Origin: a virus
Taxonomy: Duplodnaviria > Caudoviricetes
Strand: one strand, 5' to 3'
Length of the DNA stretch: 54,313 nt
IMG/VR virus record: IMGVR_UViG_3300043596_000010
Coordinates: 1-54,313 of that record
The translations under genes and the position numbers were made by a program. Positions 838-31,922 of this stretch are shown piece after piece (the first letter of the stretch is position 1; each line of letters starts with the position of its first letter). The notes beneath the pieces are model-generated. The model saw only the letters and a list, made by a program, of their open reading frames with translations. It made no database searches and was not told the DNA's origin.

Positions 838-847
838 GCTAAAACGT

Positions 848-893: not shown

Positions 894-896
894 TTC

Positions 897-1337: not shown

Positions 1338-1338
1338 A

Positions 1339-1466: not shown

Positions 1467-1469
1467 GAT

Positions 1470-2246: not shown

Positions 2247-2552
2247 TTAGTGACCCTTGTCTTTGGTGAGCTTCTTACCACAAGAACTACAGATTGCCTT
2301 ACCTGTGGACGCAATAATATAAAGGTTGCCGATCTTAGTGTTGGTTTTATCACCGTCAATAAAGCTAACCTCCTCATCTTGATTGAGCTCACGCCCAAGA
2401 TGCTTTTGCATAACTAGCCGATGCTTGGTCTCCCATCGATGGGGATTGTCGGAAACCTTAACAAGAATATAGCCCTTTCGACTTACCGTCTCCGTACCGA
2501 CGGGCTTTGACGGCCTGCCGGGTTTCTTGGACAGGTGAGTAATTAGATCCAT
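2247..2552 (-). CDS. HNH-like protein (degenerate active site)
   Basis: GYILVK...HRLVMQKHLGREL...VSFIDGDKTN. Confidence 0.7.
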   Translation of the reverse strand: MDLITHLSKKPGRPSKPVGTETVSRKGYILVKVSDNPHRWETKHRLVMQKHLGRELNQDEEVSFIDGDKTNTKIGNLYIIASTGKAICSSCGKKLTKDKGH

Positions 2553-2580
2553 TCTCTGACGACCTCTCGGCTCCTACGTA

Positions 2581-2850
2581 TCATAGAGCCTGTTCGGTGG
2601 ATTGCTTGTACTGGTCAGACAACCGGTCCTGGCGACGTCGCCGGGCCTGCCGTTCCTTGAAAGCGTGTCGGACAGCTTGTGCTTGCATTAACGATGCCTC
2701 AGCATGACCACGGTGGAGTTGATCCCAAAGTTCAATATAATGGTTTGCACTAGTTTGGCTTATAGTGGAAACTCGTAAGGTTTCACCACAAGAACATGCG
2801 ATTTTTACTTTTTCAGTATAGTTTGGAAATGCTGCCACACTAAACCTCAC
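2581..2850 (-). CDS. Hypothetical Zn-binding protein (CxCG...HxGH)
   Basis: Paralog of adjacent ORF. Confidence 0.65.
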   Translation of the reverse strand: MRFSVAAFPNYTEKVKIACSCGETLRVSTISQTSANHYIELWDQLHRGHAEASLMQAQAVRHAFKERQARRRRQDRLSDQYKQSTEQAL

Positions 2851-3077
2851 CTATCTGCAACTCGCACATAGTTTTTTCTCTCAATAATAGCCCTACGAGC
2901 ATTAGCTGCCTGTGGGAAAGTAGTTTCTTCATGCCCACTATGTAACGTATCCCAAGCATCTAGCATAACATCTATATTAGATGGGTGCAGACTAATAAAG
3001 GTTATTGAATCACCACAGTCGCACGCAAGTTTAACGCTGCTAGACCTAAATTTTCCAGCTTTCAATCTTACCTCCAA
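2847..3077 (-). CDS. Hypothetical Zn-binding protein (CxCG...HxGH)
   Basis: Paralog of adjacent ORF; 4-nt overlap. Confidence 0.65.
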   Translation of the reverse strand: MEVRLKAGKFRSSSVKLACDCGDSITFISLHPSNIDVMLDAWDTLHSGHEETTFPQAANARRAIIERKNYVRVADR

Positions 3078-3291
3078 ACTTTAGGCGATATTCCTTATCA
3101 TCGTAAGTATTAGTAAGTATATTAAATTTCAATACTAAGGTATCTCCTAATAGGCCCCATTTCCAAATATTAGAATCCGTAGTTTTAATGCCTAAAATAT
3201 GCTGTGGTTGGGCCTCAGGCATATAAAGTCCGTGGCATAAAATGACTTCGTTTGGAGCTTTATGGAATTTTGTTGGGTCAAAGTGTGTCAT
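3046..3291 (-). CDS. Hypothetical protein (start trimmed to ATG 3291)
   Basis: Packing after stop of 3293..3592. Confidence 0.5.
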   Translation of the reverse strand: MTHFDPTKFHKAPNEVILCHGLYMPEAQPQHILGIKTTDSNIWKWGLLGDTLVLKFNILTNTYDDKEYRLKFGGKIESWKI

Positions 3292-3292
3292 T

Positions 3293-3592
3293 TTAGCGGT
3301 TGATCTTTCGTGCCTGCCTAGCTCGCTTAGTGGCTGCACGATTAGCAACACGCTTAACAAGTAGCGACTGCTTGGTGCTAGTCCAAAACACAAATTCCTT
3401 TCTGTTAGGATCGTATTCCTTGAAGCCCTTTCTATGCTTCTTACGCATAGCAGCACGCTTACTGCCTGACGTGCTCTTACGCATTTCTACATGGCCAGTA
3501 ACGGGCTCCTCGTCCGGTACAGTTTCAGCCCATGCTTTAGCGTCTTCAATTGGATTGCTAGGCCCTGTGGGGAACCCGGTAAGCTCATCCAT
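3293..3592 (-). CDS. Hypothetical basic protein
   Basis: ORF with Lys/Arg-rich C-terminal half. Confidence 0.6.
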   Translation of the reverse strand: MDELTGFPTGPSNPIEDAKAWAETVPDEEPVTGHVEMRKSTSGSKRAAMRKKHRKGFKEYDPNRKEFVFWTSTKQSLLVKRVANRAATKRARQARKINR

Positions 3593-3682
3593 TAGCTAAA
3601 CCTTTCATAATTAACTGCGCCACAGTTAGGGCAGCGTGACTCTTTCTCACCTGTCCGATAGGTGAATCCGCAATTAGTGCAC

Positions 3683-3907
3683 TTAACCTTTGGCTTCTTC
3701 GGCTCTTGGGCCATTACTACCTCCGTATTTTAGGGTGTCCTTCATTTCAACTAGCGTACGCATATTGTATTCGCGTTTGTGCTTATTAGCAATTTGTTCT
3801 GCCTTAAGCATAAGCTCGAGTTTCTCCCGCTTATTAGCTGGATCAAACTCATCGACTAACTCACCTACAAAACTCCAAAAACGCTCGTCAAAGATTACAT
3901 AAGTCAT
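3683..3907 (-). CDS. Hypothetical protein
   Basis: ORF in operon, ATGA overlap. Confidence 0.6.
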   Translation of the reverse strand: MTYVIFDERFWSFVGELVDEFDPANKREKLELMLKAEQIANKHKREYNMRTLVEMKDTLKYGGSNGPRAEEAKG

Positions 3908-4137
3908 GGTGGTGAGCCCTCATCCCAACAGCCTGTATAGGCTTCATAATGTTCACCTAGCAACGCTCTAGCAATTTGATCTAATGCCCATTGCTTATGG
4001 TGGGCACCATCATACTGGCCTTGCCAAGCAAAATTTAATGCTTCAACAATTCGGTCTCTAAGTATTACCGGACTTATATTTTCCAAATGCGCCCTAAGCA
4101 TATCATCGCTCATCAACTCTGGCTCGTCGTCTGTCAT
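3904..4137 (-). CDS. Hypothetical protein (YDGAHHKQW motif)
   Basis: TAATG-coupled to polymerase stop; DGAHHK.W.LDQ motif familiar from phage hypotheticals. Confidence 0.65.
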   Translation of the reverse strand: MTDDEPELMSDDMLRAHLENISPVILRDRIVEALNFAWQGQYDGAHHKQWALDQIARALLGEHYEAYTGCWDEGSPP

Positions 4138-6494
4138 TATACCTCGGCCCATGATTTGTCACTCGACTTAATGTCGACGGCGAACGGAACATAATCAGAA
4201 AAGTGGCTACCCGATTCCATCATCATATCAATCATCAATCTTGAGACTTTTTCAACGTCGGCTTGCTTACACTCCACCATAATAGAATCGTGAACGAACA
4301 GCCGTATTGCAGCCCCAGCAGGTAAGGCCAGCCGTAATCCCATGCCGGCCGCAAGACAGATGTCACTACTAATAGACTGAGGCATAAAAGCCAAAGCTTC
4401 TTTTTCGATGTCGTGTTTGTTGTCATTGGTAATTAACTGGAATCTTCTATGTCGGCCAAAGGGTGTTACCAAATCCTGGTTAAGATCAATAACCTTGTGC
4501 TTAATACTCTTTTGCCACTTAACTAAGTTAGGCACCAACTTCATATACTTAAGCTGGAATGCCTTACCCTGCACAACCGTGAATGCATCTCCTACAACGC
4601 CCATCTTACGAGCGTCTTCGTTAACCTGATCAGTTAGCGTGCCAGGACCCATACCATAGTTGGAACCGTGAATGATTCGCTTCACAATCTGCCTGTGGGC
4701 CTTTGTCCAGTTTGGCCCAAAGATTTGTTCTGCGAATTCACCGAATACGTCCCTATGCTGATCGTTAAAGATTTCTGCCAAAAATCCTTCTTTAGCCAAG
4801 CATGCGACTGTTCGGTACTCAATCTGAGAAAAATCTGCCTGAACGAAGGCGTTTCCTTGCTCAGGGACAAACATACGCTTGATATTTGGTCCTCTGGGAA
4901 TGTTTTGGAGATTAGGATTGCGGCTTGATAACCTGCCACTAGTCGTACCGTGTAGGTTGTAAGTTGTATGGATTCGTCCCTGAAAGAGTCTTTTTTGAAT
5001 TCCTTTGATATACGTCCCATATTGCTTTTGCTCCTTGCGATACTCTAGCAGTAATCTACAAAAGACTCCAACCTCCTCCATATACTTATGCTTATTATCT
5101 ACTAATTTCTGCAACTGCTCCGCATCGGTAGTAGTAACATTTACATTAAAGTTACGTAATGCTGCGGTGACCTGCATGGGGCTACGTGGGTTGAAATCGC
5201 CACCAACATAGCGTTGTAATTCTAGCTCTAAGCTGTCTAGTAATTCAACGTACTCATTCCCAAGCTTGGTTAATGCGTCCGTATCAACCTTAATACCCTC
5301 ACGCTCAACGTGCATAAGCATGGTTGATGCGTCAAGTAAGAAATCTAATAGCTTCCGTAGATCCGGTTGAGCGTTGATCTCAGCTAATTGAATTTCTTCT
5401 ATGGCTCGGGTGTTAGAGCAATCGTAGGCATTGTAGTGAAAAAGCGTATCTGAATCAGTAGATCCAAAACTACCACTTCGACCACCACTATTGGATTTAA
5501 CCATATGCTTATACCGCTCGGCGCCCAAGAGTTCAGTAGACAGATACTCCAAACCATGAACGCCAGCACGTTCATCGAGTACATAGGATGCCAACATTGT
5601 ATCGTTATACAACTGTGCAGTGTCACTGATATGTGCCATTCCAGACAAGTCGAACTTGCCATTGTGACAAGTAATCTTCTTTGTCTCTAAGAGAGACTTA
5701 AGTTCTGCCTGAACCTGTGGATCACTACATGCAGGCTGCCCAATTACAGCCACCTTATGCTTATCATAGCTAATACCAATGCATAAGATTGGGTAGTGCA
5801 TTGCTTGAACAAAATCGGCATCTTTGTCATAGTCAGTTTCAATATCTATGACTAGATGATCGTACTTAGCTCCGATTTGCTTAAGTGCAGAAATAGCTAA
5901 GTTAGGTGTGGTGAATGCTCGCCATGCCGGCTCCTGCCAAATAGCAGTTTTGGTTACATTCACCAGCTTGGCGACGTCGTTAGCCAGGTGGGGGAAGCTG
6001 TCCGGTGCCCTAAGGCACGCCGCTGGGTGCAACGTAGGCACCACAGAGACGCCAGGGTATTGCTCAGCTTGCTTAGGCGGGCCAGCACGAAACTGAGTGA
6101 TTTTTACTTTTTCTTGAAAGACGGATGATGCCGCCGTGCCTCCGAGAGCAAGAATACGTTTGGGTTCCCTACTTGAGATTTCTTGGTGTAAACGCTTTGA
6201 ACATGCTTTGATAGCGAGTTTGCTAGGCACCCCGTTATCTTTAGGTCTACATAATACCACATTCGTAAGAAATGCTTCTTCACGGTTTAAGTTGTTTCCT
6301 TCTAGGACTGCATTGAGTAGTTGGCCGGACATACCAACAAATGGCTTACCACTCTTAATCTCATTAAATCCAGGTGCCTCACCAATAATAACTAAGTCAG
6401 CTTGTTCTGGGCCATAGCTAGGCACAAAGGCATGTTCTCTACCGTTATAAGGGCAATTCTCACAGTCTGCTAAAGGATGTTTATTTACCACCAA
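4137..6494 (-). CDS. polA: Family A DNA polymerase with 3'-5' exonuclease and N-terminal family-4 uracil-DNA glycosylase domain
   Basis: UDG: CENC, GEAPG, TNVVLCRP, HPAA; Exo: DIETD, HNGKFD, YNAYD; Pol: GRLSSRNPNLQNIP, DFSQIEYR, R...K...HG..YG, VHDS. Confidence 0.95.
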   Translation of the reverse strand: MVVNKHPLADCENCPYNGREHAFVPSYGPEQADLVIIGEAPGFNEIKSGKPFVGMSGQLLNAVLEGNNLNREEAFLTNVVLCRPKDNGVPSKLAIKACSKRLHQEISSREPKRILALGGTAASSVFQEKVKITQFRAGPPKQAEQYPGVSVVPTLHPAACLRAPDSFPHLANDVAKLVNVTKTAIWQEPAWRAFTTPNLAISALKQIGAKYDHLVIDIETDYDKDADFVQAMHYPILCIGISYDKHKVAVIGQPACSDPQVQAELKSLLETKKITCHNGKFDLSGMAHISDTAQLYNDTMLASYVLDERAGVHGLEYLSTELLGAERYKHMVKSNSGGRSGSFGSTDSDTLFHYNAYDCSNTRAIEEIQLAEINAQPDLRKLLDFLLDASTMLMHVEREGIKVDTDALTKLGNEYVELLDSLELELQRYVGGDFNPRSPMQVTAALRNFNVNVTTTDAEQLQKLVDNKHKYMEEVGVFCRLLLEYRKEQKQYGTYIKGIQKRLFQGRIHTTYNLHGTTSGRLSSRNPNLQNIPRGPNIKRMFVPEQGNAFVQADFSQIEYRTVACLAKEGFLAEIFNDQHRDVFGEFAEQIFGPNWTKAHRQIVKRIIHGSNYGMGPGTLTDQVNEDARKMGVVGDAFTVVQGKAFQLKYMKLVPNLVKWQKSIKHKVIDLNQDLVTPFGRHRRFQLITNDNKHDIEKEALAFMPQSISSDICLAAGMGLRLALPAGAAIRLFVHDSIMVECKQADVEKVSRLMIDMMMESGSHFSDYVPFAVDIKSSDKSWAEV

Positions 6495-6879
6495 TTAACT
6501 CCAATACGTCATGGTAGCTAATGGTACAAAGTTCTAATAGTAAACCAATATAATATTGATTTGTTGCGGTTGCTACGGCTACCTCAAACGGCGCAACTAT
6601 GGCTCTATAAGCATACCTAAGAGGAAACCGATCTAAATTATCAATATAAATTGTGCCATTAAAACCTAGTAATCCGTGCTCGAAGGCGCCTGCTGTATAA
6701 ACTCGCACACCGCGCTCTTGTGGAACTTTAGCTTTTAAAAATGCTGCGTCCAGTGTAGTAGCGCCTACCACAGCTATTGATTGCCGCAAAGAAGATAAAT
6801 GGCGTTCATTGTAAACTAGATTTACAATGGCTGTAGTCTTACCTTGCTGACGCCCCAAACATATATAGTTTTTAATCAT
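6481..6879 (-). CDS. Small P-loop-like protein
   Basis: GRQQGKTT Walker-A-like and IYIDN Walker-B-like motifs. Confidence 0.55.
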   Translation of the reverse strand: MIKNYICLGRQQGKTTAIVNLVYNERHLSSLRQSIAVVGATTLDAAFLKAKVPQERGVRVYTAGAFEHGLLGFNGTIYIDNLDRFPLRYAYRAIVAPFEVAVATATNQYYIGLLLELCTISYHDVLELIGGK

Positions 6880-9083
6880 TTTTCCGGGTCCTCATAGAAT
6901 GTAATTCGCTCCTGGCGGCCCTGTCCTACCCTTTCGATATAGAACCTCTGGTGTAAAGTATCAATAACGTCATCTGCCGCACGCTTGGTTAAACCAAACT
7001 GACGCATAATTTCGCCTCGCAGCATACCTGCCGGACCTGCCTTCTTAAGTGCTGATACAATCAATTCTAGCTGAGTTTCGTATGCATTCTTACCAATATT
7101 GGCCAGAACCTCTAACAAGTAATTACGCCAAATATCTACATAGAAGAAGGCATGCAGCATATCAAGTTCTGTGACCTCAATCTCATCGCTAACCATTCTA
7201 GATGCCGCAATTAATAGGGCAGCCTTTAATCCTGATTGGCAAAGCCGACTAACACATGGAAGCATAATTTCGCTATTGGCGTGATTCTGTGCAAACATTA
7301 ACATCTCAGCTTCATAGCGATTATATTCACGCCATGCGTTCGGCGTCATAGTGGCACTCCAAGATTTCTTGGTTGCTCCCACAGGCACGCCGTCTACAAC
7401 TATACTAACCATCGTATTCGAGTATCTTTTATGCATCTCTCTAAGCCGATTAAGTAGCGTATTCCTAACTGTTAGATCCTGCTCTGTAGGAGGTCCAATA
7501 GGCTTAACTTTAGTTACGTCTGCATCGGCAGTAATAAAGACAAACCGAGGAATAAAGCCGCTAGTGACTTGATCGTAGTTCAACAGCTTATAGACTTTAC
7601 TCTTAATACCGCCAGAGAAGATAATGAATACTGGGTTTCTTACAGTGACTGAGCGCTTAGACAAGACACGCTTCATTAACTTGCCGTCATACAGCTTAGT
7701 TAATGATTCGATCATACCTGATAGATAGTCTTTCTTAGCCACTGAATCTAAGAATCCTGTTAGCTCATCCTTAAGAAAGACTGAAGCCTTACCAGGTCTA
7801 ATCGACATTTCATCGAAAATGCCCTCAATGGTCCCATCGGTGCCTAAAATAGCTTCTGGCTCTAGCTCTTGCAGCATATCCATAGCCATGTCCATTGAGG
7901 TTGTTTTTCTTGTCAATGTTGTATCGGCAAGAATCATAAACCACAGGTTAGGCTGAACCGTTCCATGTGAGGCTGGAAGCTTAACGTCAGAAGCCATAAT
8001 GGCTGACAATATCGTAAAGGCACCCGCTTGGTGGTATTGTGGTGGTGCATCTACTACGCTAGCTGCCCACGTAATATAGTCTTCAATAATAGTATTATCA
8101 GATTCTACTGAAGCCCTCTCAAAATCAGTCAGTAGTGGCTTAACTTCGGAATTATTAATACTAATTCCTAAGCGCTGCTCTGCGTCAGATTCGTACTTAC
8201 GCTTAGCTCTAGCTATATCTTGCCAAAGAGCTTCAGGACCTCGATTATCCCTAGCGTACTTATTGCACTTTGCAGTTAAGCAAACACTAAAAACTTCTTC
8301 GGGAGTTAACCCATTTTCAAACAGGATGAGTTGCAGATTCCACAGGGCTGTGGACCAGTCGCCCTCTTTAGGCACATTGTTTAAGAGGATGTACGACATA
8401 GGCGTCAACGTGTGCCTGTGGCGCATTAGCACGTCATCGCTGGATTCTGGATGCAGCGGTATCTCACCAAGCGTTATTGCTACTTCCCGAGCTACATCCG
8501 GGTAAACATCAAAATCGCTCACAGAGAACGTATTGGCTGCAACACCAATTACTTCAACCATGGGTGCCGTTTGTTGGTTACCATATTTGAAGTTAGTGGT
8601 GTACGGAATACGCAGTAGCTGACTTAGATCCCAACCAGACTTATCTGCCCCAGATGGTAAATGAAAGTAAGCAATACGCTTAGCGATATGCTCAGCCTCT
8701 AGGGGCGGAATCGCATCTGCCAAACGCCATAGCGCCTGATAACGATCAGGCGAAGACTGAATGGTCAAAGATGGTGGAACCAATAAGTGATCTGGATTGC
8801 AGTAATCCAAGTCTGCCCAAATAGTTGGGCACGCAATCACATTCTCTTTAATTCGCTTAGGCGCACCTAAGATATGTGGGCAATACCACATATGATTACT
8901 ATGCTTATGCAGTGCAATATAAGCACATAATCTATCGGCCTGCCTAGGCCAATCAAAAAACTGTTGCTGCAAACTTATGCTAGGTGTATTGAATTTCCTA
9001 CGTGCTACGCAAACTATACCCTCTATATCACCATAAATTGCATCAAAGAATTGTCTGATTTGCGTAGCTTGAGTTGTTGTCAC
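6876..9083 (-). CDS. RepB-type primase fused to DUF3987-like ATPase/helicase domain
   Basis: WADLD, QSSPDRYQALW, LLRIPYTTNFKY; C-terminal TRKTT, FLKDE, SGFIPRF. Confidence 0.8.
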   Translation of the reverse strand: MTTTQATQIRQFFDAIYGDIEGIVCVARRKFNTPSISLQQQFFDWPRQADRLCAYIALHKHSNHMWYCPHILGAPKRIKENVIACPTIWADLDYCNPDHLLVPPSLTIQSSPDRYQALWRLADAIPPLEAEHIAKRIAYFHLPSGADKSGWDLSQLLRIPYTTNFKYGNQQTAPMVEVIGVAANTFSVSDFDVYPDVAREVAITLGEIPLHPESSDDVLMRHRHTLTPMSYILLNNVPKEGDWSTALWNLQLILFENGLTPEEVFSVCLTAKCNKYARDNRGPEALWQDIARAKRKYESDAEQRLGISINNSEVKPLLTDFERASVESDNTIIEDYITWAASVVDAPPQYHQAGAFTILSAIMASDVKLPASHGTVQPNLWFMILADTTLTRKTTSMDMAMDMLQELEPEAILGTDGTIEGIFDEMSIRPGKASVFLKDELTGFLDSVAKKDYLSGMIESLTKLYDGKLMKRVLSKRSVTVRNPVFIIFSGGIKSKVYKLLNYDQVTSGFIPRFVFITADADVTKVKPIGPPTEQDLTVRNTLLNRLREMHKRYSNTMVSIVVDGVPVGATKKSWSATMTPNAWREYNRYEAEMLMFAQNHANSEIMLPCVSRLCQSGLKAALLIAASRMVSDEIEVTELDMLHAFFYVDIWRNYLLEVLANIGKNAYETQLELIVSALKKAGPAGMLRGEIMRQFGLTKRAADDVIDTLHQRFYIERVGQGRQERITFYEDPEK

Positions 9084-9220: not shown

Positions 9221-9655
9221 TTACTCAGCTTCGTACTCATCTGCCGGATAGCAAACCGAAACCTGATTGCTATCGGAGTAACCAGAATCCTTCTTGGCCT
9301 TCTGGTAAGTAACCTTAGCGACCAACGACTTGCCAACTAAACCTTCGGTTCCAGTCTCGTCATCGTCGTAAAGGTCGAAATCAATTTCGCCTTCAACGTC
9401 ATAGCCGAGAGCATGAAGAAGATTCTTCAGGAAAGGCAGTCGCTTGTCATTGGTCCAAGAATAGTAGCCAAAAATGCTGCGCCCGTCGTACTCGCCACCA
9501 TCAACGTTGAAAGTAATCTTCAACTGCTGCTGACCAGGCTCGCTCTTAACATCAACCATCTCAGCCTCAAAGATGGTCAGCTTATAATCGTCGGCAGGAA
9601 TAGGCTCAAAACCCTGTGCTTCCTTAATGCCTGCAAGATTAACTGAAATACCCAT
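9221..9655 (-). CDS. DUF669-like single-stranded DNA-binding protein
   Basis: FEPIP..Y, G.Y.GR.IF, LVGK, acidic C-terminus; synteny with AAA ATPase and exonuclease. Confidence 0.75.
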   Translation of the reverse strand: MGISVNLAGIKEAQGFEPIPADDYKLTIFEAEMVDVKSEPGQQQLKITFNVDGGEYDGRSIFGYYSWTNDKRLPFLKNLLHALGYDVEGEIDFDLYDDDETGTEGLVGKSLVAKVTYQKAKKDSGYSDSNQVSVCYPADEYEAE

Positions 9656-20378: not shown

Positions 20379-22143
20379 GTTTTCCTCCTAAGTTAGATTA
20401 GTTAATTTCGCCGCTACGGGCCTGACCGGCCTGTGGGCTGGTCTAGGTGCCGGGTGCCGTACGGGGCACAGGGAACGGCATTCCGAGGGCAATCAGCCGG
20501 CGTTGAAGCTGGCGAGCACCACACCCGGCTCGACCCAGGAGGCAGCCGAACCAATTACTTCAATTTTAACATCTTTTGGATTGCACCAAGTACCCATAGC
20601 CCACGCATGCCAATTTATAAAGGTGCGATATGCTAGCCTCGGGCATGTCCAATTATCACCATCCCAAACGTAATCACCATCTGGGTGCATATGCTTTGCA
20701 TCGTACCAACTACTAGCACAGACTATGGCACTATCATATGTGTCGTAACCATTGTTAACTGTTTGCGAAATCCTGTATAAGTTTTTGGTCATGCCAATAA
20801 GCCAAACGGTAAGAGATCTTCAACAGAGTCTTGTGTATAAGCTGCAATCCAACGTGACATAAAAGTCCCGATATGATCGTAATACTCATACGTGATTACC
20901 CAAACAGTATCATCCATTAGTTATTCCTACAGGTAGTGTGCTTTGCACAGGCTTTTTCAGCCTCCGCATAGGTATTGCACTTCTTTTCCCAAATACACTC
21001 CAGGCATTGGGCTAAGTACTTACCGTCTCTACGTAACGCAATGTGTGTCATAGGCATTTTACCACTTACCGTCCTTTCGCTTAGGCGTGCCCCTACAAAT
21101 ATGATTCCGCTTTACGGTATTTGCCTCTTTCTCTGTGTAGCATAGCACAGAAAACTCGTGGCAGGTAGAGCTACTGCAAGTCACTACCCAGCCCTTTCCT
21201 CTTTTATCTACTTCTGGACCGGCTCGTTTAAATCCCATTCATTACTCACCACCTTAGCAACCCAAGCAAGTGAATCAATCCAAACTGCTTCATAAGTATT
21301 TGGGTCTTGGTTAACACTAGCCCACAGGTAGCGGGAGTGAACTCTGCCATAAGCATTAAGCAAGTCTACCAAATTAGCCGTGGCAGCAACTGCAATACCC
21401 CGGTTCACACCATGTGCTTGTGTTATGATTTCTAGCAACGTTTGCATTTCTTCAATTGGATCCATAATTAGAACCCAAGCATTCTTTGAACTTCTCGTTC
21501 AAGTGTTTCTGTTGCATCTACAAGTTGTGCAACGAATGCGTCTACATCGCCATTCAACCGCTCAACAGACTCTGCCACAAGCAATGTTATAATTGCGTTA
21601 GTCTTAGAGTCAAGCAGACTTAATGCGGTACTAGCCAAAGTAAGGTTATCGTTTTCCAAAGCCCTTGTGGCTATATTCGTTATCACGTTGAGTTGACGCA
21701 TAGCCTCAACCTTATCCCATTCAATCATTTACAGTAGCTCCGATTCTTCTGTAGCTTCCCAATGTGCAAGTTCGCCCAACGTGGCATAACGCTCTATTGG
21801 CTGTTCGTAGTACATGAATGCCCACTTATCACCTAATACCCAATCGACAAATGCCCTAGCATTCTCATAGTCAACCGCAGACACACGAACATACCCATTG
21901 GAATCAATCCAGTCGAACACAGGGTGTAACTCTTGGTTCTTACCATGTCCGTATTGAACCCCGAATGTAACGTAGAAATCTTGCATTACTACTCCTTTTT
22001 TACGTAAACGGTTGTGTACCGCTTATTTCCGTGAGTTTCTAACATAGTAAAGCAATAGGCATAATATCTTACGCCTTAATTCTTTTTGTGTAATTATTTT
22101 ATACATATATTAATTCCGCCTTTTTCCGTGGGTATTGTTAAGA

Positions 22144-22900: not shown

Positions 22901-22932
22901 ACTCCTGTGTATACCGATTCCACCATGCGGGC
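22901..22932 (-). pseudogene. 5' fragment of a tRNA-Leu-type gene
   Basis: GCCCGCA TG GTGGAATCGGTATACAC A = acceptor 5' strand plus Leu-type D arm; breaks off into HNH gene. Confidence 0.7.
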
Positions 22933-23176
22933 ATTGTGTGCTAGGCGATAGCTAGCCTACGAACGTAGTCCTACACTATTCTTACCTATCGGTTAACGAC
23001 CTAGCACAAAAAATTAATTGTTACGATCCATGTGTGCAGCCGCAACTGCCTTATCAGGATTCTTATTAGAACATCTAGGGCCTACCGTGCCACAAATATT
23101 GCAGATTGCTTGGCAGGCTCGGGTGCCATTGTGAATGTGTACAAGGTGCAGCGCATTAGGATCACGCTTTTTCATT

Positions 23177-24764: not shown

Positions 24765-24965
24765 TTAGCCATTTACCTTAAGCCCCTTTCGTAGCCGCAT
24801 AACGGCCTCAGTTAAGAACGCTTCTTTTTCGTATGGCCTAAACTTTCTCTGTGGCCGAGCAACTATTTCCATCAACCTAGCTGCTAATTCCTCATCCGAC
24901 ATATTCGCAGCTACGCTACGCATGAGCTTGAGGTTAGCTTCAAACTCTTGGTTACCAATAGGCAT
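24765..24965 (-). CDS. Hypothetical protein
   Basis: AAGGAG SD. Confidence 0.65.
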   Translation of the reverse strand: MPIGNQEFEANLKLMRSVAANMSDEELAARLMEIVARPQRKFRPYEKEAFLTEAVMRLRKGLKVNG

Positions 24966-24985
24966 AGGACTCCTTTTTAAATAGC

Positions 24986-25038
24986 TTGATTAAGCATGGT
25001 CTAGCATGACTACCGCCATACTAGCCAAACGCAATCAA
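24986..25038 (-). repeat. Conserved intergenic hairpin element, copy D
   Basis: TTGA-TTGC-GTTT-GG-stem-CC-ATGCTTA-A-TCAA. Confidence 0.75.
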
Positions 25039-25040
25039 AC

Positions 25041-25325
25041 TCAACCTGGCATGTACTTACGTGGCCAAGTCACCTCAAATTCTTTGTTTATAGTATTGGC
25101 ACAATCGAGCCCAGCAACGTGCCAACTATCGGCATTCTCGTCAGTGATAGCCTCGTAAGCGGATAGCCCGTACTTAACGGGCAGGCGGAACCTGTGGGCA
25201 TTCTTAGCTGCCTTCCAAGTCTGCACCTTGCCATTAGGGCGCCAGTTGTGGCCACAATCGGTACCAATGTGGTAGTGGTTGTTATTACTGGTAGCGTCAG
25301 CCAGCACTTGATCCTTAGTAATCAT
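25041..25325 (-). CDS. Hypothetical protein (WR.NG...TWK...FR.PVKYG)
   Basis: Motif familiar from phage hypotheticals. Confidence 0.7.
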   Translation of the reverse strand: MITKDQVLADATSNNNHYHIGTDCGHNWRPNGKVQTWKAAKNAHRFRLPVKYGLSAYEAITDENADSWHVAGLDCANTINKEFEVTWPRKYMPG

Positions 25326-25611
25326 TTCAGCCCCTTTTTAGGTATACTTGGTTTACATCACCATCAACCATGATGTCAATTAAAGGATCTAATCCTCCAT
25401 AAGATTCTTTTGTATCCTCCGCATAAATCATAATTACATAATGTGCAGGCACCTTATCGAGGAAGCGACGCAATTGCTGTACAGTCATGCTTAACATGAT
25501 CCCTTCTTCTTTGCGTAAACAATACGAAAGCAACCATCATGAAATAGGTAACCTAGGTAGGTAAAGTTTCCTATGGCTAAACCACCTAGCTCCACACGCC
25601 TACCACAATGC

Positions 25612-25818
25612 TTACAGTTTCCCATTTAGTTTTCCCTTACGATTGTCTGCCCAATTACACCATGCCAACAGCAAACCAAAAAGGGCTACACTGGTTACGG
25701 CGATAATAGGCACGGCCCACATAACGAAATTAGCGTCCCTATCGGTTGCATCGTAGTAAGCGCTTGCTTGTTGCGCCGTATAGCAGGTATTGTGAATAAT
25801 GAACTTACAGTTTTCCAT
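25612..25818 (-). CDS. Small membrane protein
   Basis: Single TM helix; GAGG SD. Confidence 0.6.
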   Translation of the reverse strand: MENCKFIIHNTCYTAQQASAYYDATDRDANFVMWAVPIIAVTSVALFGLLLAWCNWADNRKGKLNGKL

Positions 25819-25836
25819 TAGTGCTTAATCCTCTCT

Positions 25837-25893
25837 CGATTAGGCATGGCACCAACCTGTGGGCATAACCACAGGTTGGCCCAAACTCAATCG
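25837..25893 (-). repeat. Conserved intergenic hairpin element, copy C
   Basis: CGA-TTGA-GTTT-GG-stem-CC-ATGCCTA-A-TCG. Confidence 0.75.
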
Positions 25894-26135
25894 CTAAGTA
25901 GGTTAGCAGATGCTTGCTCAGTTACATAGCTCGACAAGAACTCCTGAATGCTAGACTTGTAGGTAGCATCGCTAGTACGCATATCAGCGTATGCCTCAGC
26001 GAAATCCAGGTGGTCAAAGTCTTTTAGACTAGTACCGTGCCATTTTGAATGGGCACAACATAGGTGATTGATACTATCAGTAACACCTACAGCATAGTAG
26101 TATGCCACAGTTTTATAATGTGCATGTGAACTCAT
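25887..26135 (-). CDS. Hypothetical protein, AYxYAxGxxD paralog family
   Basis: VAYYYAVGVTDS...DFAEAY. Confidence 0.65.
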   Translation of the reverse strand: MSSHAHYKTVAYYYAVGVTDSINHLCCAHSKWHGTSLKDFDHLDFAEAYADMRTSDATYKSSIQEFLSSYVTEQASANLLSD

Positions 26136-26143
26136 TTGGAATC

Positions 26144-26395
26144 CTATCCTCGGTTGTACTTGGCTACCATTTTAGCGTGCCCGGCAATAGCTTCTTCCCT
26201 AGTGGCGTATTCCTCGCTATCCAACTCATATGAACTGCTGCTTAGGACCTGCCTGGCGAGTAGGAATGCGGCACTAAAAACCATAGTCTCATAGCCTACT
26301 ACAACTACACCGTTGGGGGACCCACCAAATAAAGCCACAGTTGAAACTATGAGATTAACGGGCGTCTTAAGGTCGAGATCACCTTCAATTTCCAT
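26144..26395 (-). CDS. Hypothetical protein (VSTV...YETMVF...Y.T.EEA..GH)
   Basis: Motif familiar from phage hypotheticals; contains a 32-bp segment shared with 18611-18642. Confidence 0.7.
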   Translation of the reverse strand: MEIEGDLDLKTPVNLIVSTVALFGGSPNGVVVVGYETMVFSAAFLLARQVLSSSSYELDSEEYATREEAIAGHAKMVAKYNRG

Positions 26396-26472
26396 TTACA
26401 ATCCCCTTTTTAGTTTTGCTTGTACATAGGTCAGCACAACTTTACGTTGTACTGCCTAAACACAGTCAAAGC

Positions 26473-26928
26473 TCAGAACGGCTCGTCATCGGCAATATCC
26501 TCAGGCACTTCGTTATCGTCATTGTCACCCTCGAAGCACAAGACATCGCTAAAGAAGCTCTTAAACCCAGTAACAGCATCTTCCCACTTTGTCACAGTAA
26601 TAAGGCTGTCACCATTGTAATCGTAAGTGATTTCAGGCTCGGGCGCACGCCAACCAGCCTCGATAAGTGCCTTAGCAATGTTCTCAGCCGTGGTCAAGTC
26701 TAGCGCAAAACAAGTAGCCTGAATCTTAGCTGCCAGTTGCGTAACAACCTCCAAATCACTCTGAAACTTAGCGTACTCGGCCTGCGACACAGGATTAATG
26801 TTGTTGCCACCAATTCCATAGTTACTGCCAACGCCGTAAGCATGTGCATCGGCAAGCAACTTAGCGTCACGCAAGTGCAGCGTAGGATGCTTAACTCGCA
26901 AATGCTTAATGTACTGAATGTGACTCAT
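26473..26928 (-). CDS. Hypothetical protein with acidic tail
   Basis: GGAG SD; IK.LR....L.DAK pattern. Confidence 0.65.
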   Translation of the reverse strand: MSHIQYIKHLRVKHPTLHLRDAKLLADAHAYGVGSNYGIGGNNINPVSQAEYAKFQSDLEVVTQLAAKIQATCFALDLTTAENIAKALIEAGWRAPEPEITYDYNGDSLITVTKWEDAVTGFKSFFSDVLCFEGDNDDNEVPEDIADDEPF

Positions 26929-26929
26929 T

Positions 26930-27193
26930 TTACTTAGCTCCTTCGATGTCTAGTAGACCTGCGCACAACCCACAGGTGCGATAATGTAGAATGTCTTTGG
27001 GATCTAGTGACTCACTTACTGTTAGCTCACCCCATTCTTTAGGGGGCTGGTATTCAGCGTGCGTCTCTGGTGTGTTACATCGACGCTTAGCCTCAATTCT
27101 GGCTCTAACTGCATCATAGCTCAAATCAATACTCCTTTTAGGTGTTGATTGAACATGGTAGAATTTGTGGGCTGGCTCTGCACAAGGACGCAC
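26930..27193 (-). CDS. Hypothetical protein
   Basis: ORF in operon; Cys/His motifs. Confidence 0.55.
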   Translation of the reverse strand: MRPCAEPAHKFYHVQSTPKRSIDLSYDAVRARIEAKRRCNTPETHAEYQPPKEWGELTVSESLDPKDILHYRTCGLCAGLLDIEGAK

Positions 27194-27293
27194 ACATTTA
27201 ACTTATCTGACCCATTGTAATCTAGCCGCTCTAACGCACTTTGATTACGGATGATAAGCACCCACAAATTAACCAAACTCATTCAACTATGTA

Positions 27294-28397
27294 TTACGCA
27301 CACACCAATTGCATGGTACTCAGCACTTCGGCGTCAGCCTTAGCGTAAGCGCCACTAACCACACCTTCAAAGTTCCGCTCAGCGGAACTCTTAACAGATC
27401 CAACCCGATTGCGCTGGGGCCGCTCATGGTGCATGTAGGTATTGAAAGCCTGCCAAACTCCCAAACCAGTACCAACCCAGGGCGCACAACGATCGTCGTG
27501 CTTGTAAAGCCCTTCAATTGTGTGCCGGGTATTCATAGTCTGGGTAATCTTGTTCTTCGTAGGCTCGTCACCCAATGGGTAAAGGTGCTCAACAATCTTG
27601 TTGAACTGGTTGTTAGTAACGGAGATTTGCGTCAAAGCAGCAACCTCAGCACTGAAGTCGTCAGCCATCGAATGCACAATGTTCAGTGCGTCTCTAGCGT
27701 TCATGAGCTTCAAAGCTGAGTTCTTCGTGTGCTTGAACTTCAGCTTCTCACCAGCCTCACTAAGCCCCGCCGCCATGGTGTTATCGCAAACCCACGCAGT
27801 AGCGCCCTTCTTAAAGGTAGTTGCCACAGTCCCGTTAAAGCTTGTGGCAGCCCCAATGAAAGGCCGGAAGGCGAACCCTTCAGGGGTTGTAACGGTTTCA
27901 GGCATTTCAACCTGAACAAACGCTACTGCTCTGTTCTGTAGCAGGGCGGCAGAGCCAATAACCAACTCAGAATCAAGCAAGTTAGCAACGCCATCGAGCA
28001 GCCACTCCTTGTAATCGTGGCCGGCGTAACCGTCCTTAAAGCTACCAAGATCCTCAAGCGTATCGCTAGTCAGCATACCCTTGCGACCCTCAGTGCTCTT
28101 AACGAACTTGATTGGCAAACCCTTATCGTCAAGCGCTTGCATTTCGTCCATTTCGCAAGGCACGGCAAAGTAAGCCGGAGCCTCAATGAACTCAAAGCTG
28201 AACAGCCGTTCTACGACGTCTTCAACCGGAATCCCGAGTTCGTAGTGGTTGCTCGTGTAATGGCCCTTAGGGGTACCGTCGGCATTGAAGTACAAAGCGT
28301 GGTTGAACTCTTCCCGGTAGTGCCAGGCATTGCCTCGCTTACTGGTCATACCAACCAACACGTTGGTGTTCAACCACTCTGACGTTTCTTGACTCAT
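27294..28397 (-). CDS. DUF932-family phage/plasmid protein
   Basis: AWH, SFNGT..T, VCDNT, KHTKN, GT..G..QAFN.Y..H. Confidence 0.8.
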   Translation of the reverse strand: MSQETSEWLNTNVLVGMTSKRGNAWHYREEFNHALYFNADGTPKGHYTSNHYELGIPVEDVVERLFSFEFIEAPAYFAVPCEMDEMQALDDKGLPIKFVKSTEGRKGMLTSDTLEDLGSFKDGYAGHDYKEWLLDGVANLLDSELVIGSAALLQNRAVAFVQVEMPETVTTPEGFAFRPFIGAATSFNGTVATTFKKGATAWVCDNTMAAGLSEAGEKLKFKHTKNSALKLMNARDALNIVHSMADDFSAEVAALTQISVTNNQFNKIVEHLYPLGDEPTKNKITQTMNTRHTIEGLYKHDDRCAPWVGTGLGVWQAFNTYMHHERPQRNRVGSVKSSAERNFEGVVSGAYAKADAEVLSTMQLVCA

Positions 28398-28456
28398 TTC
28401 AAGTTACCACCTTTTTGTTTATCTGCTACTTAAGTGTAGCAAATGCCCATTTCCAA

Positions 28457-28540
28457 TTGAATAGGCATAGATTAGCACTACCTGTGGGTTAGTAGTAACC
28501 TGTGGGTTAGTAGTAGGTAGTGCTAACTAAACGCACTCAA
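28457..28540 (-). repeat. Conserved intergenic hairpin element, copy A (loop holds a tandem duplication of the CCTGTGGG unit)
   Basis: TTGA-GTGC-GTTT-AG-stem-CT-ATGCCTA-T-TCAA. Confidence 0.75.
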
Positions 28541-28697
28541 TCAGGGTACATAGCTCGGAGGTTTCGTAGGGTAACTGGGTAGCGGTTACCGTTAGGTTCT
28601 TTAACAATGGCAACCCGATCACCATTGACCACAGGGGCGTCGATTGCCGTTAACATTGTCTTTGCGGTAGTAGCACCGCTTATCAATGTAGCATTCA

Positions 28698-28928
28698 TTA
28701 GCTTGCATCCCAATTCTTTGCAACGAAAGCCCAAAACGCAGGCAGGTTGTCGTCATTGTGGTATGGGTCAACCAAAGGCTGATTACCAGGCTCTACAATA
28801 TTAGTTGCCAATTCAGGGTTAACGTCACTTAGCATATTGTAAGCGTGCTGACCGAACCTTACGCCACCTGGTTTCTTGCTGGTTAGCACCGACATCATGA
28901 ATTCGTGGTAAGTCTTACGTTTTGCCAT
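28698..28928 (-). CDS. Hypothetical protein (R.GQ...N.L...DPYH)
   Basis: GAGGTG SD; motif familiar from phage hypotheticals. Confidence 0.7.
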   Translation of the reverse strand: MAKRKTYHEFMMSVLTSKKPGGVRFGQHAYNMLSDVNPELATNIVEPGNQPLVDPYHNDDNLPAFWAFVAKNWDAS

Positions 28929-28978
28929 GTTATTTCACCTCTTAATTTTAAGGTTGCACCTTAAGTTAGCCTGAAGAA

Positions 28979-29088
28979 TTGAATAGGCATAACCTAGCAC
29001 TAGCCACAGGTGCAACTCTAGGCGCATAAATAACCACTTATGCCTCTATAGGTACCGCCATGACTAGTGCTAGTTTAAATCCATTCAA
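28979..29088 (-). repeat. Conserved intergenic hairpin element, copy B
   Basis: TTGA-ATGG-ATTT-AA-stem-TT-ATGCCTA-T-TCAA. Confidence 0.75.
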
Positions 29089-29288
29089 ATAGGCCTTAAC
29101 TGCCTTAACTGCCATGCGTGGGCATATGTGTACATCGGATACTCGCCGGGCTCACAAACACTACGAAGTCGAATCAAGTTGGTCTGTGGGTCAATACCCA
29201 TAAACCAAACAACTTCTCCAGTATCTAGTACCAATTGAGTTAGCTTTTTAAGCTCATTCAACTCTACCAACTCCATAATTATCCTCAC
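29085..29288 (-). CDS. Hypothetical protein
   Basis: First ORF downstream of the non-coding region. Confidence 0.55.
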   Translation of the reverse strand: MRIIMELVELNELKKLTQLVLDTGEVVWFMGIDPQTNLIRLRSVCEPGEYPMYTYAHAWQLRQLRPI

Positions 29289-29470
29289 TTTTGAGAGTTT
29301 GTGCGTTAGTAACCCCTAGTAGCCTTTAACAGCCCTTAGCAATCCTTAGCGACCCATTTAGTGCCTTGCCTTAATAGCGCAGCGGTGGCGGTCGGCCGGA
29401 GATTTGCCCACAGGGGGTGCGGAATTGGCACTTGAATGACCACTGAAAGTGGTTGTTAGGGGAGGTTTAT

Positions 29471-29504
29471 AGAACGTGTGTTTGTATCGTCGTACGTATG
29501 TTTG
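29471..29504. promoter_or_regulatory. Two degenerate LexA (SOS) boxes
   Basis: AGAAC-GTGT-GTTTG and CGTAC-GTAT-GTTTG. Confidence 0.45.
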
Positions 29505-29835
29505 ATGGACGATTCTTAGTATTTCATAGTATATAGACTATGAGGGAAGACTATGAAAGACCATGAAAAAGGTAATATGGTTACTATAGAATCTAGTACG
29601 AATGTATATTTGAAGTTTGACGTCTCTTTATGGTCTATATATAAGAGTATATATATATTAGATAACTACAAAGAACTTCTTAAGATCTGATATGAACCGT
29701 ATAACTATACTGTAACTATGAACTAGTTAGTTATATATCTGGCCAAAACACGTTGACTTGGGGATGTATAAATCTAACAGTCGTGTCACTTTCCAAAAAT
29801 GCCTTTGACGGCCATCGAAATGACATGACATGGTA

Positions 29836-29849
29836 CGAACGCTTGTTCG
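29836..29849. promoter_or_regulatory. LexA (SOS) box
   Basis: CGAAC-GCTT-GTTCG. Confidence 0.65.
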
Positions 29850-30219
29850 CTGTATGATTATTTAGGCTCATACAGTGTAACCTACGTCGGTGCGTACCAT
29901 ACTTGCACACCATTCTCAGTACCCCCGAAAATAGTACTAGGCGCCTAGTGATTAAAACGCTATCTACCCGTATCTATCTAAGATCAGCACCATCATGTAT
30001 AAGAAGTAAAGGCATGACTGTCTATCCATGAAGGGCAAGACATCTATACTATATGTATAGGAGGAGGTTACAGGACGGACACTCACATGACATGAGATAT
30101 ACCGGGCTGCCTCTTAGCATTAGTCTTAGTGCTTTGTGGCACTAAAGAGCACCTAAGCGCACCTAAGCCGATTAGCTTAGGTACTCTATGGTGTTACAAA
30201 GCGAATAGCGTTGGATTAA

Positions 30220-30489
30220 CTAGTAGTCGACATCAATGCACGTAGTGGGCAGCACACTGTTAGGTGTACCGCCCATGTCCAAACACCGTTGCTTCCAACC
30301 GAATTGGTCGGACTGACCAGTGTCATCCATAATGATATTCAACTGCGTTGGCTTATCGAGATTAGGCACCACGCCTGTCTCATCGACCGTTACTACCTGT
30401 GGGCTCGTATCCGGGGTGGCGCCGTCATGGCAACCACCAAACACCATAAGAACTGCTACGAACCTACTGAACAGCTTTAGCGCTTTCAT
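30220..30489 (-). CDS. Putative lipoprotein / secreted protein
   Basis: Basic N-terminus, hydrophobic stretch, FGGC lipobox-like, C-terminal CxxxGG...C. Confidence 0.6.
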   Translation of the reverse strand: MKALKLFSRFVAVLMVFGGCHDGATPDTSPQVVTVDETGVVPNLDKPTQLNIIMDDTGQSDQFGWKQRCLDMGGTPNSVLPTTCIDVDY

Positions 30490-30725
30490 GCCAACATCGC
30501 TGACATAATAGGCAGGTCGAAAGGAAAGAACATATCAATCAGTGCTTGGAAGTTAGCCTCAGTAGGCTCACCCCAGCACACCATAATCATTGCCCTACGC
30601 AGCAACCTGGCGGCATTGGTAGGATCGTCAAACTCGAATTCCAGTATGAAGCTCAACTCGCTAACGCATTTCTCAAATTCATACCGTTCCATTGTTGCCC
30701 TTTCTAAGTAAACACGAACTAGCAC
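30486..30725 (-). CDS. Hypothetical protein (start uncertain)
   Basis: ATGA overlap with downstream gene. Confidence 0.5.
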   Translation of the reverse strand: MLVRVYLERATMERYEFEKCVSELSFILEFEFDDPTNAARLLRRAMIMVCWGEPTEANFQALIDMFFPFDLPIMSAMLA

Positions 30726-31420
30726 TACTAACTCATTAAGAGCAGTAGTGCTAGTCGTGATTACTTGAAATGTCGTATTTCAATTTCTGACCTAGCAAGC
30801 TCAACGGTGGCAGACGAGATAGTGATTATGTTGGCGTTTCGTCCTAATATGTCAAGTCTGGCAGATTGCATATGCCCGAATTTCCGTGGCTGAGGCAACT
30901 GCTCGCACCGTGTCTAACGTTGCTAGGCAAGGTTCGGATTCCGTCTTAGCTGGTAGTTTGGATCTGGGGAGAACATGTCCGTTTGCATTGCCGTTGCCGG
31001 TTGCGTACGGGGCCGATCAATCCCTAGTCAGTGACTAGCTCAAGAATTCAACCTCTAAGACCTCGGGTTTAACGTGCCAGGTGCAACACGGTGATTCAAC
31101 CAGCTATTGCTGGCCTACAGGGGTAGGTGGCCAAATGCTTGTGGAATGCGATTCGATCTAGGGCCTTTCCGCTTGCCGTTTCCCTTACAGACACCAAGTT
31201 AGCAGGTCTGGGGCGATGGGGCGACAAATTTGGGTACTTTCTTGCGGAACCGCATTCCGCCCCCTCAGGGGGCCTAGGCGGCCCTGGAAGGCCCTGGAGC
31301 AGTGGTAGGTCCTGCCAGCGCTGGAAGGCCAGCGGAACGCCGTTCCGGGGCGTATGCGGGGATGCTGGCTGGGGCTAGCCCCTGGCACCCTACCCCTAGG
31401 CACCCTACCCCCACAGGGGT

Positions 31421-31460
31421 ACCCCTATATACCCCTATATACCCCTATATACCCCTATAT
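31421..31460. repeat. Tandem repeat (ACCCCTATAT)x4
   Basis: Four exact 10-mers. Confidence 0.95.
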
Positions 31461-31658: not shown

Positions 31659-31706
31659 GTGGGGGCGGCGGCCGATCGAGCTCGAAGGCGAGTTAAGCAT
31701 CCTTAA

Positions 31707-31720
31707 CGAACGAACGTTCG
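31707..31720. promoter_or_regulatory. LexA (SOS) box
   Basis: CGAAC-GAAC-GTTCG. Confidence 0.65.
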
Positions 31721-31738
31721 ACTCAAAAGAAAGTGGGT

Positions 31739-31843
31739 GGTCCCAAATTTTTCTGAGCGGTTTTAGTTCTTAAGGTCCCAAATTTTTCTGAGCGATTTTA
31801 ACTCTTAGGGCCTAAATTTTTCAGACTAATTTTGGTTTCTTAG
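31739..31843. repeat. Three imperfect 35-bp direct repeats
   Basis: GGTCCCAAATTTTTCTGAGCG.TTTTA.TCTTA twice plus a degenerate third copy. Confidence 0.85.
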
Positions 31844-31922
31844 CAAGTAATCTTAATAAAGTCTTTAACTAATTACTTAATACCAAACCTTAGTCGGTAC
31901 CCAAAAAAGTTCTCTAAACTAC

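Follow-up and report, generated by a model that had tools for sequence, protein, structure and literature searches.

The window analysed here is the whole of IMG/VR virus record IMGVR_UViG_3300043596_000010 (54,313 bases), which derives from a phage from soil. The phage is a siphovirus with structural genes on the plus strand and replication genes (polymerase, primase, Sak4-like annealing protein, exonuclease and helicase) on the minus strand. At the start of a minus-strand operon, at 24986-29088, small genes of unknown function are separated by six related hairpin elements, all of them on the minus (mRNA-sense) strand (Table 1). All six intergenic gaps, 69-180 nucleotides (nt) long when measured from open reading frame (ORF) coordinates, contain one element each. 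Among the genes flanking the elements, a family match was obtained only for the DUF932 gene, apart from one weak sub-threshold match to DUF7254.

Four of these elements had been listed in an earlier note on this DNA, and all four are present within one base of the positions given there, on the minus strand. The family, however, comprises six members. E5 had been missed, and E6 had been mistaken for a lone 5' half after the DUF932 gene (27273-27286), because its halves stand 114 nt apart; it is in fact complete. The 5'-half pattern GA.TG.[AG]TTT occurs eight times on the minus strand of the window and never on the plus strand. Six of these occurrences are the elements, and the remaining two (at 21000 and 18540) are coding sequence without a 3' half. 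When the covariance model built from the six elements (R1) was run over the window, it returned the elements at 38-70 bits; otherwise, it found only antisense images, the hairpin at 30701-30771 and noise of at most 13 bits. This last hairpin, placed by the note near 30707-30767, is real and has stem words in common with E3 and E4, but the U.U/U.G basal core is absent from it. We regard it as a possible relative and do not count it as a member.

Table 1. Hairpin elements of the window and the related long hairpin
Feature	Position	Strand	Location	Fold (kcal/mol)	z	R1 (bits)	Upstream stop	Remarks
E1	24986-25038	minus	last of the series	-32	-6.9	69.9		antisense fold only -13.9 kcal/mol; downstream gene begins with ATGCCTA
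E2	25836-25894	minus		-34.7	-6.3	43.2	TGA, positions 6-8 of 5' half	outer stem CGA/TCG
E3	28457-28540	minus	upstream of DUF932 gene	-34.2	-5.5	64	positions 2-4	apical part contains two CCCACAGG words
E4	28979-29088	minus	after first gene past the 930-bp non-coding region	-50.5	-5.3	59.1	TGA, positions 2-4 of 5' half	basal halves TTGAATGGATTTAA / TTATGCCTATTCAA; apical part 82 nt
E5	26416-26469	minus		-26.1	-4.8	54.6		newly found; 3' half degenerate (CTATGTACAAGCAA); outer pairs formed 5/7; missed by structural descriptor
E6	27145-27286	minus	downstream of DUF932 gene	-49.8	-5.2	38.3	9 nt before element	complete, with 114-nt branched apical insert; found by structural descriptor
Related long hairpin	30701-30771	minus	upstream of gene 30486-30692	-38.4	-7.9	23.5 (E 0.001)		CTAGCACTA stem words as in E3 and E4

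Structure and covariation of the hairpins

From its base upwards, the basal helix consists of seven pairs, a 1x1 mismatch (N opposite C), two pairs (G-C and U.G), an invariant U.U mismatch and three further pairs, i.e. 14 positions in which the U.U mismatch lies beside the U.G wobble. In the window copies, a single unpaired base on the 3' side follows above the basal helix, and then a perfect upper stem of 10-16 base pairs (bp), giving about 24-27 helical positions in total per element. The apical part beyond the upper stem can be of any length (4 to about 90 nt). The spacer between the basal halves measures 25-114 nt and the entire element 53-142 nt.

The six elements and the hairpin at 30701-30771 all folded far more stably than shuffled sequences (z from -4.8 to -7.9), with none of 200 shuffles equally stable. 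In all seven, the minus-strand RNA was more stable than the plus-strand RNA, which bears out the strand specificity that the note had proposed. In the six window copies, 93.1% of 72 basal cells were paired and double changes were observed at four of 12 pairs. Neither the percentage of paired cells nor the covariation score was reached by any of 500 shuffles; the number of double-change pairs was reached by 26 of them, and slid controls gave 28-41% pairing. An alignment of 16 elements, taken from the window and from the phages Amigo, Anansi, Amavida, Rings and Molivia (see below), had 93.0% of 186 cells paired, double changes at 10 of 12 pairs and an invariant U.U. Here, too, percentage paired and covariation score were beyond all 500 shuffles, and slid controls gave 32-37%. 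The number of further pair types proved uninformative as a measure, being reached by 398 of 500 shuffles for the six copies and by 450 of 500 for the 16 elements. When the basal helices of 25 elements were considered, nine of them obtained with the structural descriptor introduced below, 44 G.U pairs were counted versus seven A.C or C.A cells (21 versus seven without the position fixed by the descriptor). The U.U mismatch was present in all 25, being imposed by the descriptor for those nine. The stems thus vary in sequence yet keep pairing, as had been suggested, and no U-tract is associated with the elements, there being no T run after any of the six. The hairpins are a genuine, strand-specific, covarying structured RNA motif.

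Nineteen elements come after a gene; in 13 of these, the 5' basal strand includes the stop codon of that gene, and in the other six the stop is 3-9 nt upstream. As for the window, where elements had been said to begin at or within a few nt of the upstream stop, the stop falls within the 5' half in E2, E3 and E4 and 4-9 nt before it in E1, E5 and E6. Two elements, A1 of Amigo and M1 of Molivia, are located in the 5' untranslated region before the first annotated gene, and only an unannotated ORF of 21-23 codons ends upstream of them. The next start codon is found 18-60 nt downstream of the element, behind a leader and a Shine-Dalgarno sequence.

Distant copies in cultured phages

Distant copies of the motif were detected in four groups of cultured phages, represented by Arthrobacter phages of the genus Amigovirus, Clavibacter phage CMP1, Curtobacterium phage Yappy and Stenotrophomonas virus Jojan60. 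The lack of homologs for which the earlier note had allowed is thus not what was found. The window-trained model matched Amigo with E-values of 2.5e-7 and 0.0025 and Molivia with 0.0036 and 0.018, in each case between small rightward genes adjoining a non-coding repeat region of about 1 kb. We also used a structural descriptor that requires two 14-nt halves with U.U at position 11, Y.G at position 10 and three pairs above, together with six or more of the seven outer pairs and an upper stem no shorter than 9 bp. In the window, the descriptor returned five of the six elements and one stray plus-strand match inside a tail gene; in Amigovirus, it returned three elements in Amigo and two in Molivia. 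Same-strand clusters were found in phages sharing the primase, namely CMP1 (three elements within 1.1 kb), Yappy (two) and Jojan60 (four). Clavibacter phage CN1A contained no descriptor match, and 1.25 Mb of unrelated viral loci, serving as negative control, contained 10, i.e. about 0.5 per 60-kb genome. Pairing in the nine elements of CMP1, Yappy and Jojan60 is partly given by construction, while their clustering, strand and position at gene ends are not. The window-trained model recognized one of the Jojan60 elements with an E-value of 4.9e-4 and one of the CMP1 elements with 1.3e-3, the others being matched weakly (E 0.1-0.7). When the other gaps of Yappy and Jojan60, each about 80 nt long, were folded, further members came to light that the strict descriptor had missed.

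In CMP1 and Jojan60, the elements are situated among the first small leftward genes, just inside the annotated right terminal repeat. In Yappy, they are situated among small leftward genes near the right genome end, one of them following an ArdA-like anti-restriction gene; the Yappy feature table, in the part examined, lists no repeat feature. At about 64409-64459 of the Yappy record, an additional element reaches, with its 5' half and upper stem, into the annotated GTG start of gene 134; this start has probably been set too far upstream.

Wider searches were less productive. A strict motif pattern had one match in IMG/VR, due to chance, and 20 matches in JGI metagenomes (17.8-26.2 bits, without stem support), which we likewise take as chance. 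No model match at E<=1 was obtained with default filters in 80 viral DUF932 neighbourhoods (1.25 Mb), which were reused as the negative control mentioned above. An IMG/VR scan for the CTAATT...TGCCTAATTAG subtype gave 18 loci, of which only the Amigo and CMP1 records passed the descriptor. Compared with Rfam 15 at the gathering threshold, the whole window yielded two tRNAs only. In E-value mode, positions 24900-30900 and the Amigo right arm yielded only sub-threshold matches resembling microRNA precursors and leaders. No Rfam family thus matches the motif, which lies outside that collection, as the note had supposed. No description of the elements was found in the literature searched, including the Arthrobacter phage paper PMC5513430 (supplements were outside reach), the main text of which contains no use of stem-loop, hairpin, intergenic, inverted repeat, palindrom, promoter or terminator. 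No paper naming Jojan60 was found in this search either. The motif is undescribed.

Close relatives of the window phage were not found by IMG/VR single-protein scans with DUF932 or primase, and blastn of the window against cultured phages gave no match. The window primase is 28% identical to that of the Amigovirus phages, and the order of the replication genes is the same. The genes adjoining the elements are, however, dissimilar between the window and the Amigo group. According to tblastn (E<=1e-4, six compared genomes), polymerase, primase, Sak4 and helicase have matches in at least three genomes, the ORF at 9221-9655 in two, and two further ORFs in one each. As the flanking genes are dissimilar and few proteins are shared, conservation is stronger in the non-coding module than in the genes that lie between its copies.

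Comparison of Amigo, Rings, Amavida and Anansi revealed where these genomes part. They are near-identical up to the 5' basal half of element 1, the apical stem of which is wholly different among them and exists in three versions. Agreement returns over the 3' half of element 1 and the ribosome-binding region and is followed by divergence through gene 84; similarity then resumes exactly at the stop codon and the start of element 2. Orthologous Amigovirus elements also carry compensating changes in their upper stems. The note's impression of cassettes is therefore correct insofar as the similarity breaks fall exactly at element boundaries. Site-specific shuffling need not be invoked, since the gene replacements can be explained by ordinary homologous exchange at conserved linkers. 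In this lineage, the elements mark where early-gene exchange occurs.

Possible roles of the elements

The elements are probably cis-acting RNA hairpins in a polycistronic message of small, probably early genes. By analogy with phage T7, we propose that they act as intercistronic mRNA processing and stabilising hairpins and are probably RNase III substrates; we assign this reading a probability of about one half. According to it, each hairpin would fold as soon as it is transcribed, and a host double-strand-specific endonuclease, most likely RNase III, would cut the 3' strand within the distorted core or next to it. A complete hairpin, blocking 3' exonucleases, would then form the end of the upstream cistron, and the downstream cistron would be left with a leader that is short, unstructured and C/A-rich or A-rich, followed by a Shine-Dalgarno sequence and its start codon. 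In this way, every small gene would yield a stable and well-translated message of its own. The basal halves, being conserved in sequence, might also serve passively as short homologous linkers for gene exchange between related phages. We infer the cutting of the RNA, the enzyme, the cut site and the earliness of the genes alike.

This proposal draws on five T7 early intergenic hairpins, which we refolded and which we take to be RNase III sites R0.3 to R1.3. The T7 early sites were reportedly described by Dunn and Studier in 1983. The five hairpins form a paralogous family with one copy ahead of gene 0.3, occupy gaps of 62-80 nt, share a conserved lower stem and internal loop, and lack a U-tract; in the second site, the lower stem contains the gene 0.4 stop codon. 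The layout of a T7-type RNase III signal, i.e. an irregular helix of about 24-27 positions with internal distortion, placed between or ahead of cistrons, is found in the elements described here. As in the window, the T7 sites are hairpins (50-60 nt) within one early operon which start at or over the upstream stop and lack a U-tract, and in both systems the hairpin is followed by a leader of about 20-30 nt, a Shine-Dalgarno sequence and a start codon. The first gene of T7 (0.3) is an anti-restriction gene, and a Yappy element likewise follows the ArdA-like one. On the other hand, T7 sites have one asymmetric internal loop between two stems, while the present elements have two 1x1 mismatches (N.C and the invariant U.U) beside the U.G wobble. 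Unlike in T7, the apical part is free and reaches 114 nt, the hosts include Actinobacteria, and cleavage is only predicted. Among the three options that had been offered for these hairpins (RNase III-type processing, protein binding or antitermination, and attC-like recombination), the first fits best, its layout being that of the refolded T7 hairpins, while the last is not supported (see below). The range of hosts, which spans Actinobacteria and one gammaproteobacterium, suggests that the factor is either universal, such as RNase III, or encoded by the phages.

Several observations weigh against processing. The early status of the genes is read from position only. R1 run over T7 positions 400-7000 gave a best score of 7.1 bits (E 3.8), so that the likeness to T7 concerns layout and does not extend to homology. 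The core of the elements is conserved more tightly than RNase III is commonly believed to require. Public runs holding the window sequence comprise the DNA source sample only and no RNA run. The elements co-occur with the polymerase-primase-helicase module, which leaves room for a role at the DNA level. In addition, the triplet at positions 3-5 of the 3' strand reads ATG in 16 of the 25 elements, GTG in four, TTG in five and CTG in none (NUG hereafter; its TG is imposed by the descriptor for nine elements, its first base never), and CMP1 and Yappy use G.U, not G-C, at this position. By inspection, a stop codon occurs within the first eight bases of the 5' strand in 24 of the 25, versus about 25% expected by rough estimate. 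Processing leaves three features unexplained, namely the tightness of the core, the obligatory NUG and the stop codon built into the element.

These codons could be accounted for by translation coupling, an unlikely alternative in our opinion, in which the terminating ribosome would unzip the basal helix and expose the NUG in the 3' strand, and ribosomes would pass the hairpin to a mini-ORF or to the next cistron (termination-reinitiation, shunt-like). The stop positions in the 19 elements that follow a gene and the absence of CTG from the NUG triplet agree with such a scheme. Moreover, eight elements have a NUG that opens exactly three codons, their final triplet being the stop. A sister type of hairpin in Amigovirus (TCGTTAGG...ATGCCTATCGA) contains a Shine-Dalgarno sequence and, in ATGCCTATCGA, the true start of an ORF of about 62 codons that is unannotated and conserved, Amigo and Anansi differing in it by mostly synonymous changes, and the window genes at 24965 and 21057 begin with ATGCCTA. 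However, no Shine-Dalgarno sequence precedes the NUG in the window elements, and the next genes have their own outside the hairpin. The NUG opens mini-ORFs of 3-33 codons, some of which overlap the next gene out of frame, and in one case (Jojan60 element c) it shares its frame with the gene that follows. Upstream of A1 and M1, the ORF of 21-23 codons is present but no annotated gene. Finally, T7 site R0.5 also contains the upstream stop, and a stop inside the hairpin therefore does not discriminate between processing and coupling. Somewhat bolder, and doubtful as well, is the idea that the stop in the 5' strand and the obligatory NUG in the 3' strand would hand the ribosome across the upper hairpin, as a bacterial counterpart of ribosome shunting. 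The 14-nt halves would then be linkers by which early anti-defence genes are swapped as ready-to-express cassettes among phages with terminal repeats, from Actinobacteria to Stenotrophomonas.

A fixed distorted helix is typical of protein recognition sites. The elements might accordingly bind a sequence-specific RNA-binding protein of phage or host (e.g. a ribosomal protein) and act as a translational repressor, antiterminator loading or RNA chaperone site. This appears rather unlikely to us. While the U.U and U.G core and ATGCCTA are kept between phages whose primases are 28% identical and whose flanking genes are dissimilar, the core differs by genus (ATGCC, TTGTC, ATGG), as if structure and not sequence were read. 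No candidate protein is common to these phages, the shared proteins being polymerase, primase, Sak4 and helicase, and no known family was found. Even less can be said for factor-independent terminators or attenuators that would create an expression gradient along the operon. Such U-less terminators were reportedly claimed for the early region of actinophage phiC31 by Ingham et al. in 1995, and the elements are indeed stable hairpins at gene ends. Yet none of them has a U-tract, none of nine scanned terminator-like sites coincides with an element, one element precedes the first gene, the replication genes downstream would be silenced by six stops in 4 kb, and one host is a gammaproteobacterium; canonical U-tract terminators occur elsewhere in these genomes. 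According to the part of PMC3993855 available to us, purified mycobacterial RNA polymerase needs a U-tract and does not terminate at hairpins lacking one, even with NusA and NusG, and contaminating nucleases are raised there as a possible cause of earlier reports of U-less termination. We consider terminators very unlikely here. Promoters were also rejected: the TTGA word resembles a -35 box, but no -10 box is conserved at a fixed distance, and other subtypes begin with CTAATT. None of 26 promoter-like sites in the scan (shuffle mean 29) falls inside an element.

A role at the DNA level, either as attC-like single-strand recombination sites or as lagging-strand template hairpins that the phage primase-helicase uses near the origin, is similarly improbable. 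Integron attC sites are, like the elements, strand-specific imperfect hairpins of similar length located after single genes, with conserved paired ends, unpaired bases and a variable terminus, and the elements (53-142 nt) indeed have a one-base 3' bulge above the basal helix and 25-114 nt between the basal halves. Between Amigo, Amavida and Anansi, both gene 84 and the element 1 apical part have been replaced, and the genomes become similar again precisely at the element that follows. For forks departing from the adjacent non-coding repeat region, the strand with the elements would serve as lagging-strand template, and the elements accompany the primase module. Unlike in integrons, the boxes R'' and R' (RYYYAAC...GTTRRRY) are not found in that order on either strand upon inspection, as the GTTT-RR word of the 5' half pairs with YY-ATGC and the order on the opposite strand is reversed as well. 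A PHROGs scan detected no RNA polymerase, integrase or other recombinase among 23 ORFs of at least 150 amino acids (smaller ORFs being covered only within 24.7-31.7 kb), in keeping with the remark in the note that no tyrosine recombinase is visible. Furthermore, attC sites do not share the reliance of pairing on G.U or the mostly actinobacterial hosts; both the abundance of G.U pairs and the close fit to stop and start signals speak in favour of RNA. Homologous recombination by the pair of Sak4 and exonuclease that the phage itself encodes accounts for the exchanges. No joints were found in the source-sample contigs; a single low-depth variant contig (151 nt) departs from the window within the E6 apical part, which is evidence too weak to be used.

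Three further known systems bear some likeness to the elements. DUF932 and ArdA are genes of plasmid leading regions, and Frpo single-strand promoters of these regions were considered and rejected, as no paired -35 and -10 boxes are conserved. SAS and ESAS sequences of Cluster K mycobacteriophages and Cluster EF Microbacterium phages are also repeated intergenic modules of one orientation in the non-structural half of the genome. In the portions of PMC3203893 and PMC7302621 consulted, they are described as inverted repeats, imperfect and of variable spacing, that immediately precede a conserved ribosome-binding region and are conserved beside unrelated genes, with no function assigned; the spacer in ESAS measures 4-13 bp, and according to the authors there is little to support an RNA hairpin. 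In contrast, the spacer here is 25-114 nt and pairing covaries strongly. The SAS 13-mer has eight matches in the window with up to three mismatches versus 9.5 expected, and none of these adjoins an element. The PeSL cassettes of T4-type phages, as presented in the available parts of PMC2839356 and PMC4122927, are short conserved elements flanking small ORFan genes and points of homologous exchange, each a strong sigma-70 promoter joined to a terminating stem-loop. They thus resemble our elements in flanking small ORFan genes in plastic early regions and in exchange between related phages. They differ in that no element contains a promoter-like site or a U-tract, and no mini-circle joints were seen in the source-sample contigs. 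Transposons, including miniature inverted-repeat transposable elements, were rejected because the interior differs in every copy.

If the elements are processing sites, T7-like cutting of an early message into stable single-gene messages would extend to siphoviruses of Actinobacteria, where phage RNA biology is almost unstudied; the core (U.U beside U.G) is defined and testable. As harmless members are available in culture (Amigo grows on Arthrobacter sp. ATCC 21022), the mechanism is directly open to experiment, the translation-linked reading included. The motif can be modelled and could enter Rfam. Its presence marks a probable early or host-takeover operon where the early genes have no recognisable function, and it pinpoints gene boundaries, as illustrated by mis-annotated starts and by the unannotated conserved small ORF in Amigovirus. 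This ORF of about 62 codons sits at about 56203-56391 of the Amigo record (L004:26204-26392) and at L005:11321-11500 in Molivia, in a 300-bp gap after gene 86 (gene 91 in Molivia), and encodes a hydrophobic C-terminus. It is kept in Amigo, Anansi, Amavida, Rings and Molivia, with mostly synonymous differences. The window genes at 24965 and 21057 mentioned above are on the minus strand, and ATGCCTA, with which they begin, is the word of the elements' 3' half.

Other features of the window

Upstream of the element-bearing genes, a partly AT-rich non-coding stretch of 930 bp extends over 29290-30220. Four tandem 10-nt units (TATATAGGGG in minus-strand view) follow at about 31400-31460, and three repeats of about 20 nt at about 31700-31900 in the divergent control region. 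Taken together, they have the appearance of an origin or operator region, comparable to the 1-kb repeat region of Amigo.

Two hairpins outside the family were noted on the minus strand. The long one at 22930-23008 has the stem words GTGCTAG/CTAGCAC, as do E3, E4 and the hairpin at 30701-30771, while the short one at 22057-22076 has the 3' arm ...ATGCCTATTG and adjoins two tRNA genes. The word CCACAGG (complement CCTGTGG) occurs 57 times across the window versus about 4.8 expected, for example at 857, 25862, 28487, 28505 and 29004, and CCCACAGG occurs 34 times versus 1.1 expected. Both words are found in both orientations and in coding as well as non-coding DNA, with no skew of strand or position. 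CCACAGG lies in the upper stems of E2, E3 and E4; the right half of Amigo is not enriched in it (three in 29 kb). Its excess possibly reflects a site for a host or phage protein, or a modification target.

Inside the gene at 26144-26395, the 32-nt stretch 26238-26269 is common to two other contigs of the source sample (40.5 kb and 4.6 kb), which continue unlike the window. It is a short repeat common to another genome of the sample, and one contig of a second run spans it. Finally, the same 148 bases, with one mismatch, stand at both ends of the record (1-148 and 54166-54313). The assembly therefore closes on itself, being either circular or a collapsed terminal repeat; the record is nonetheless classed as linear and 86% complete.

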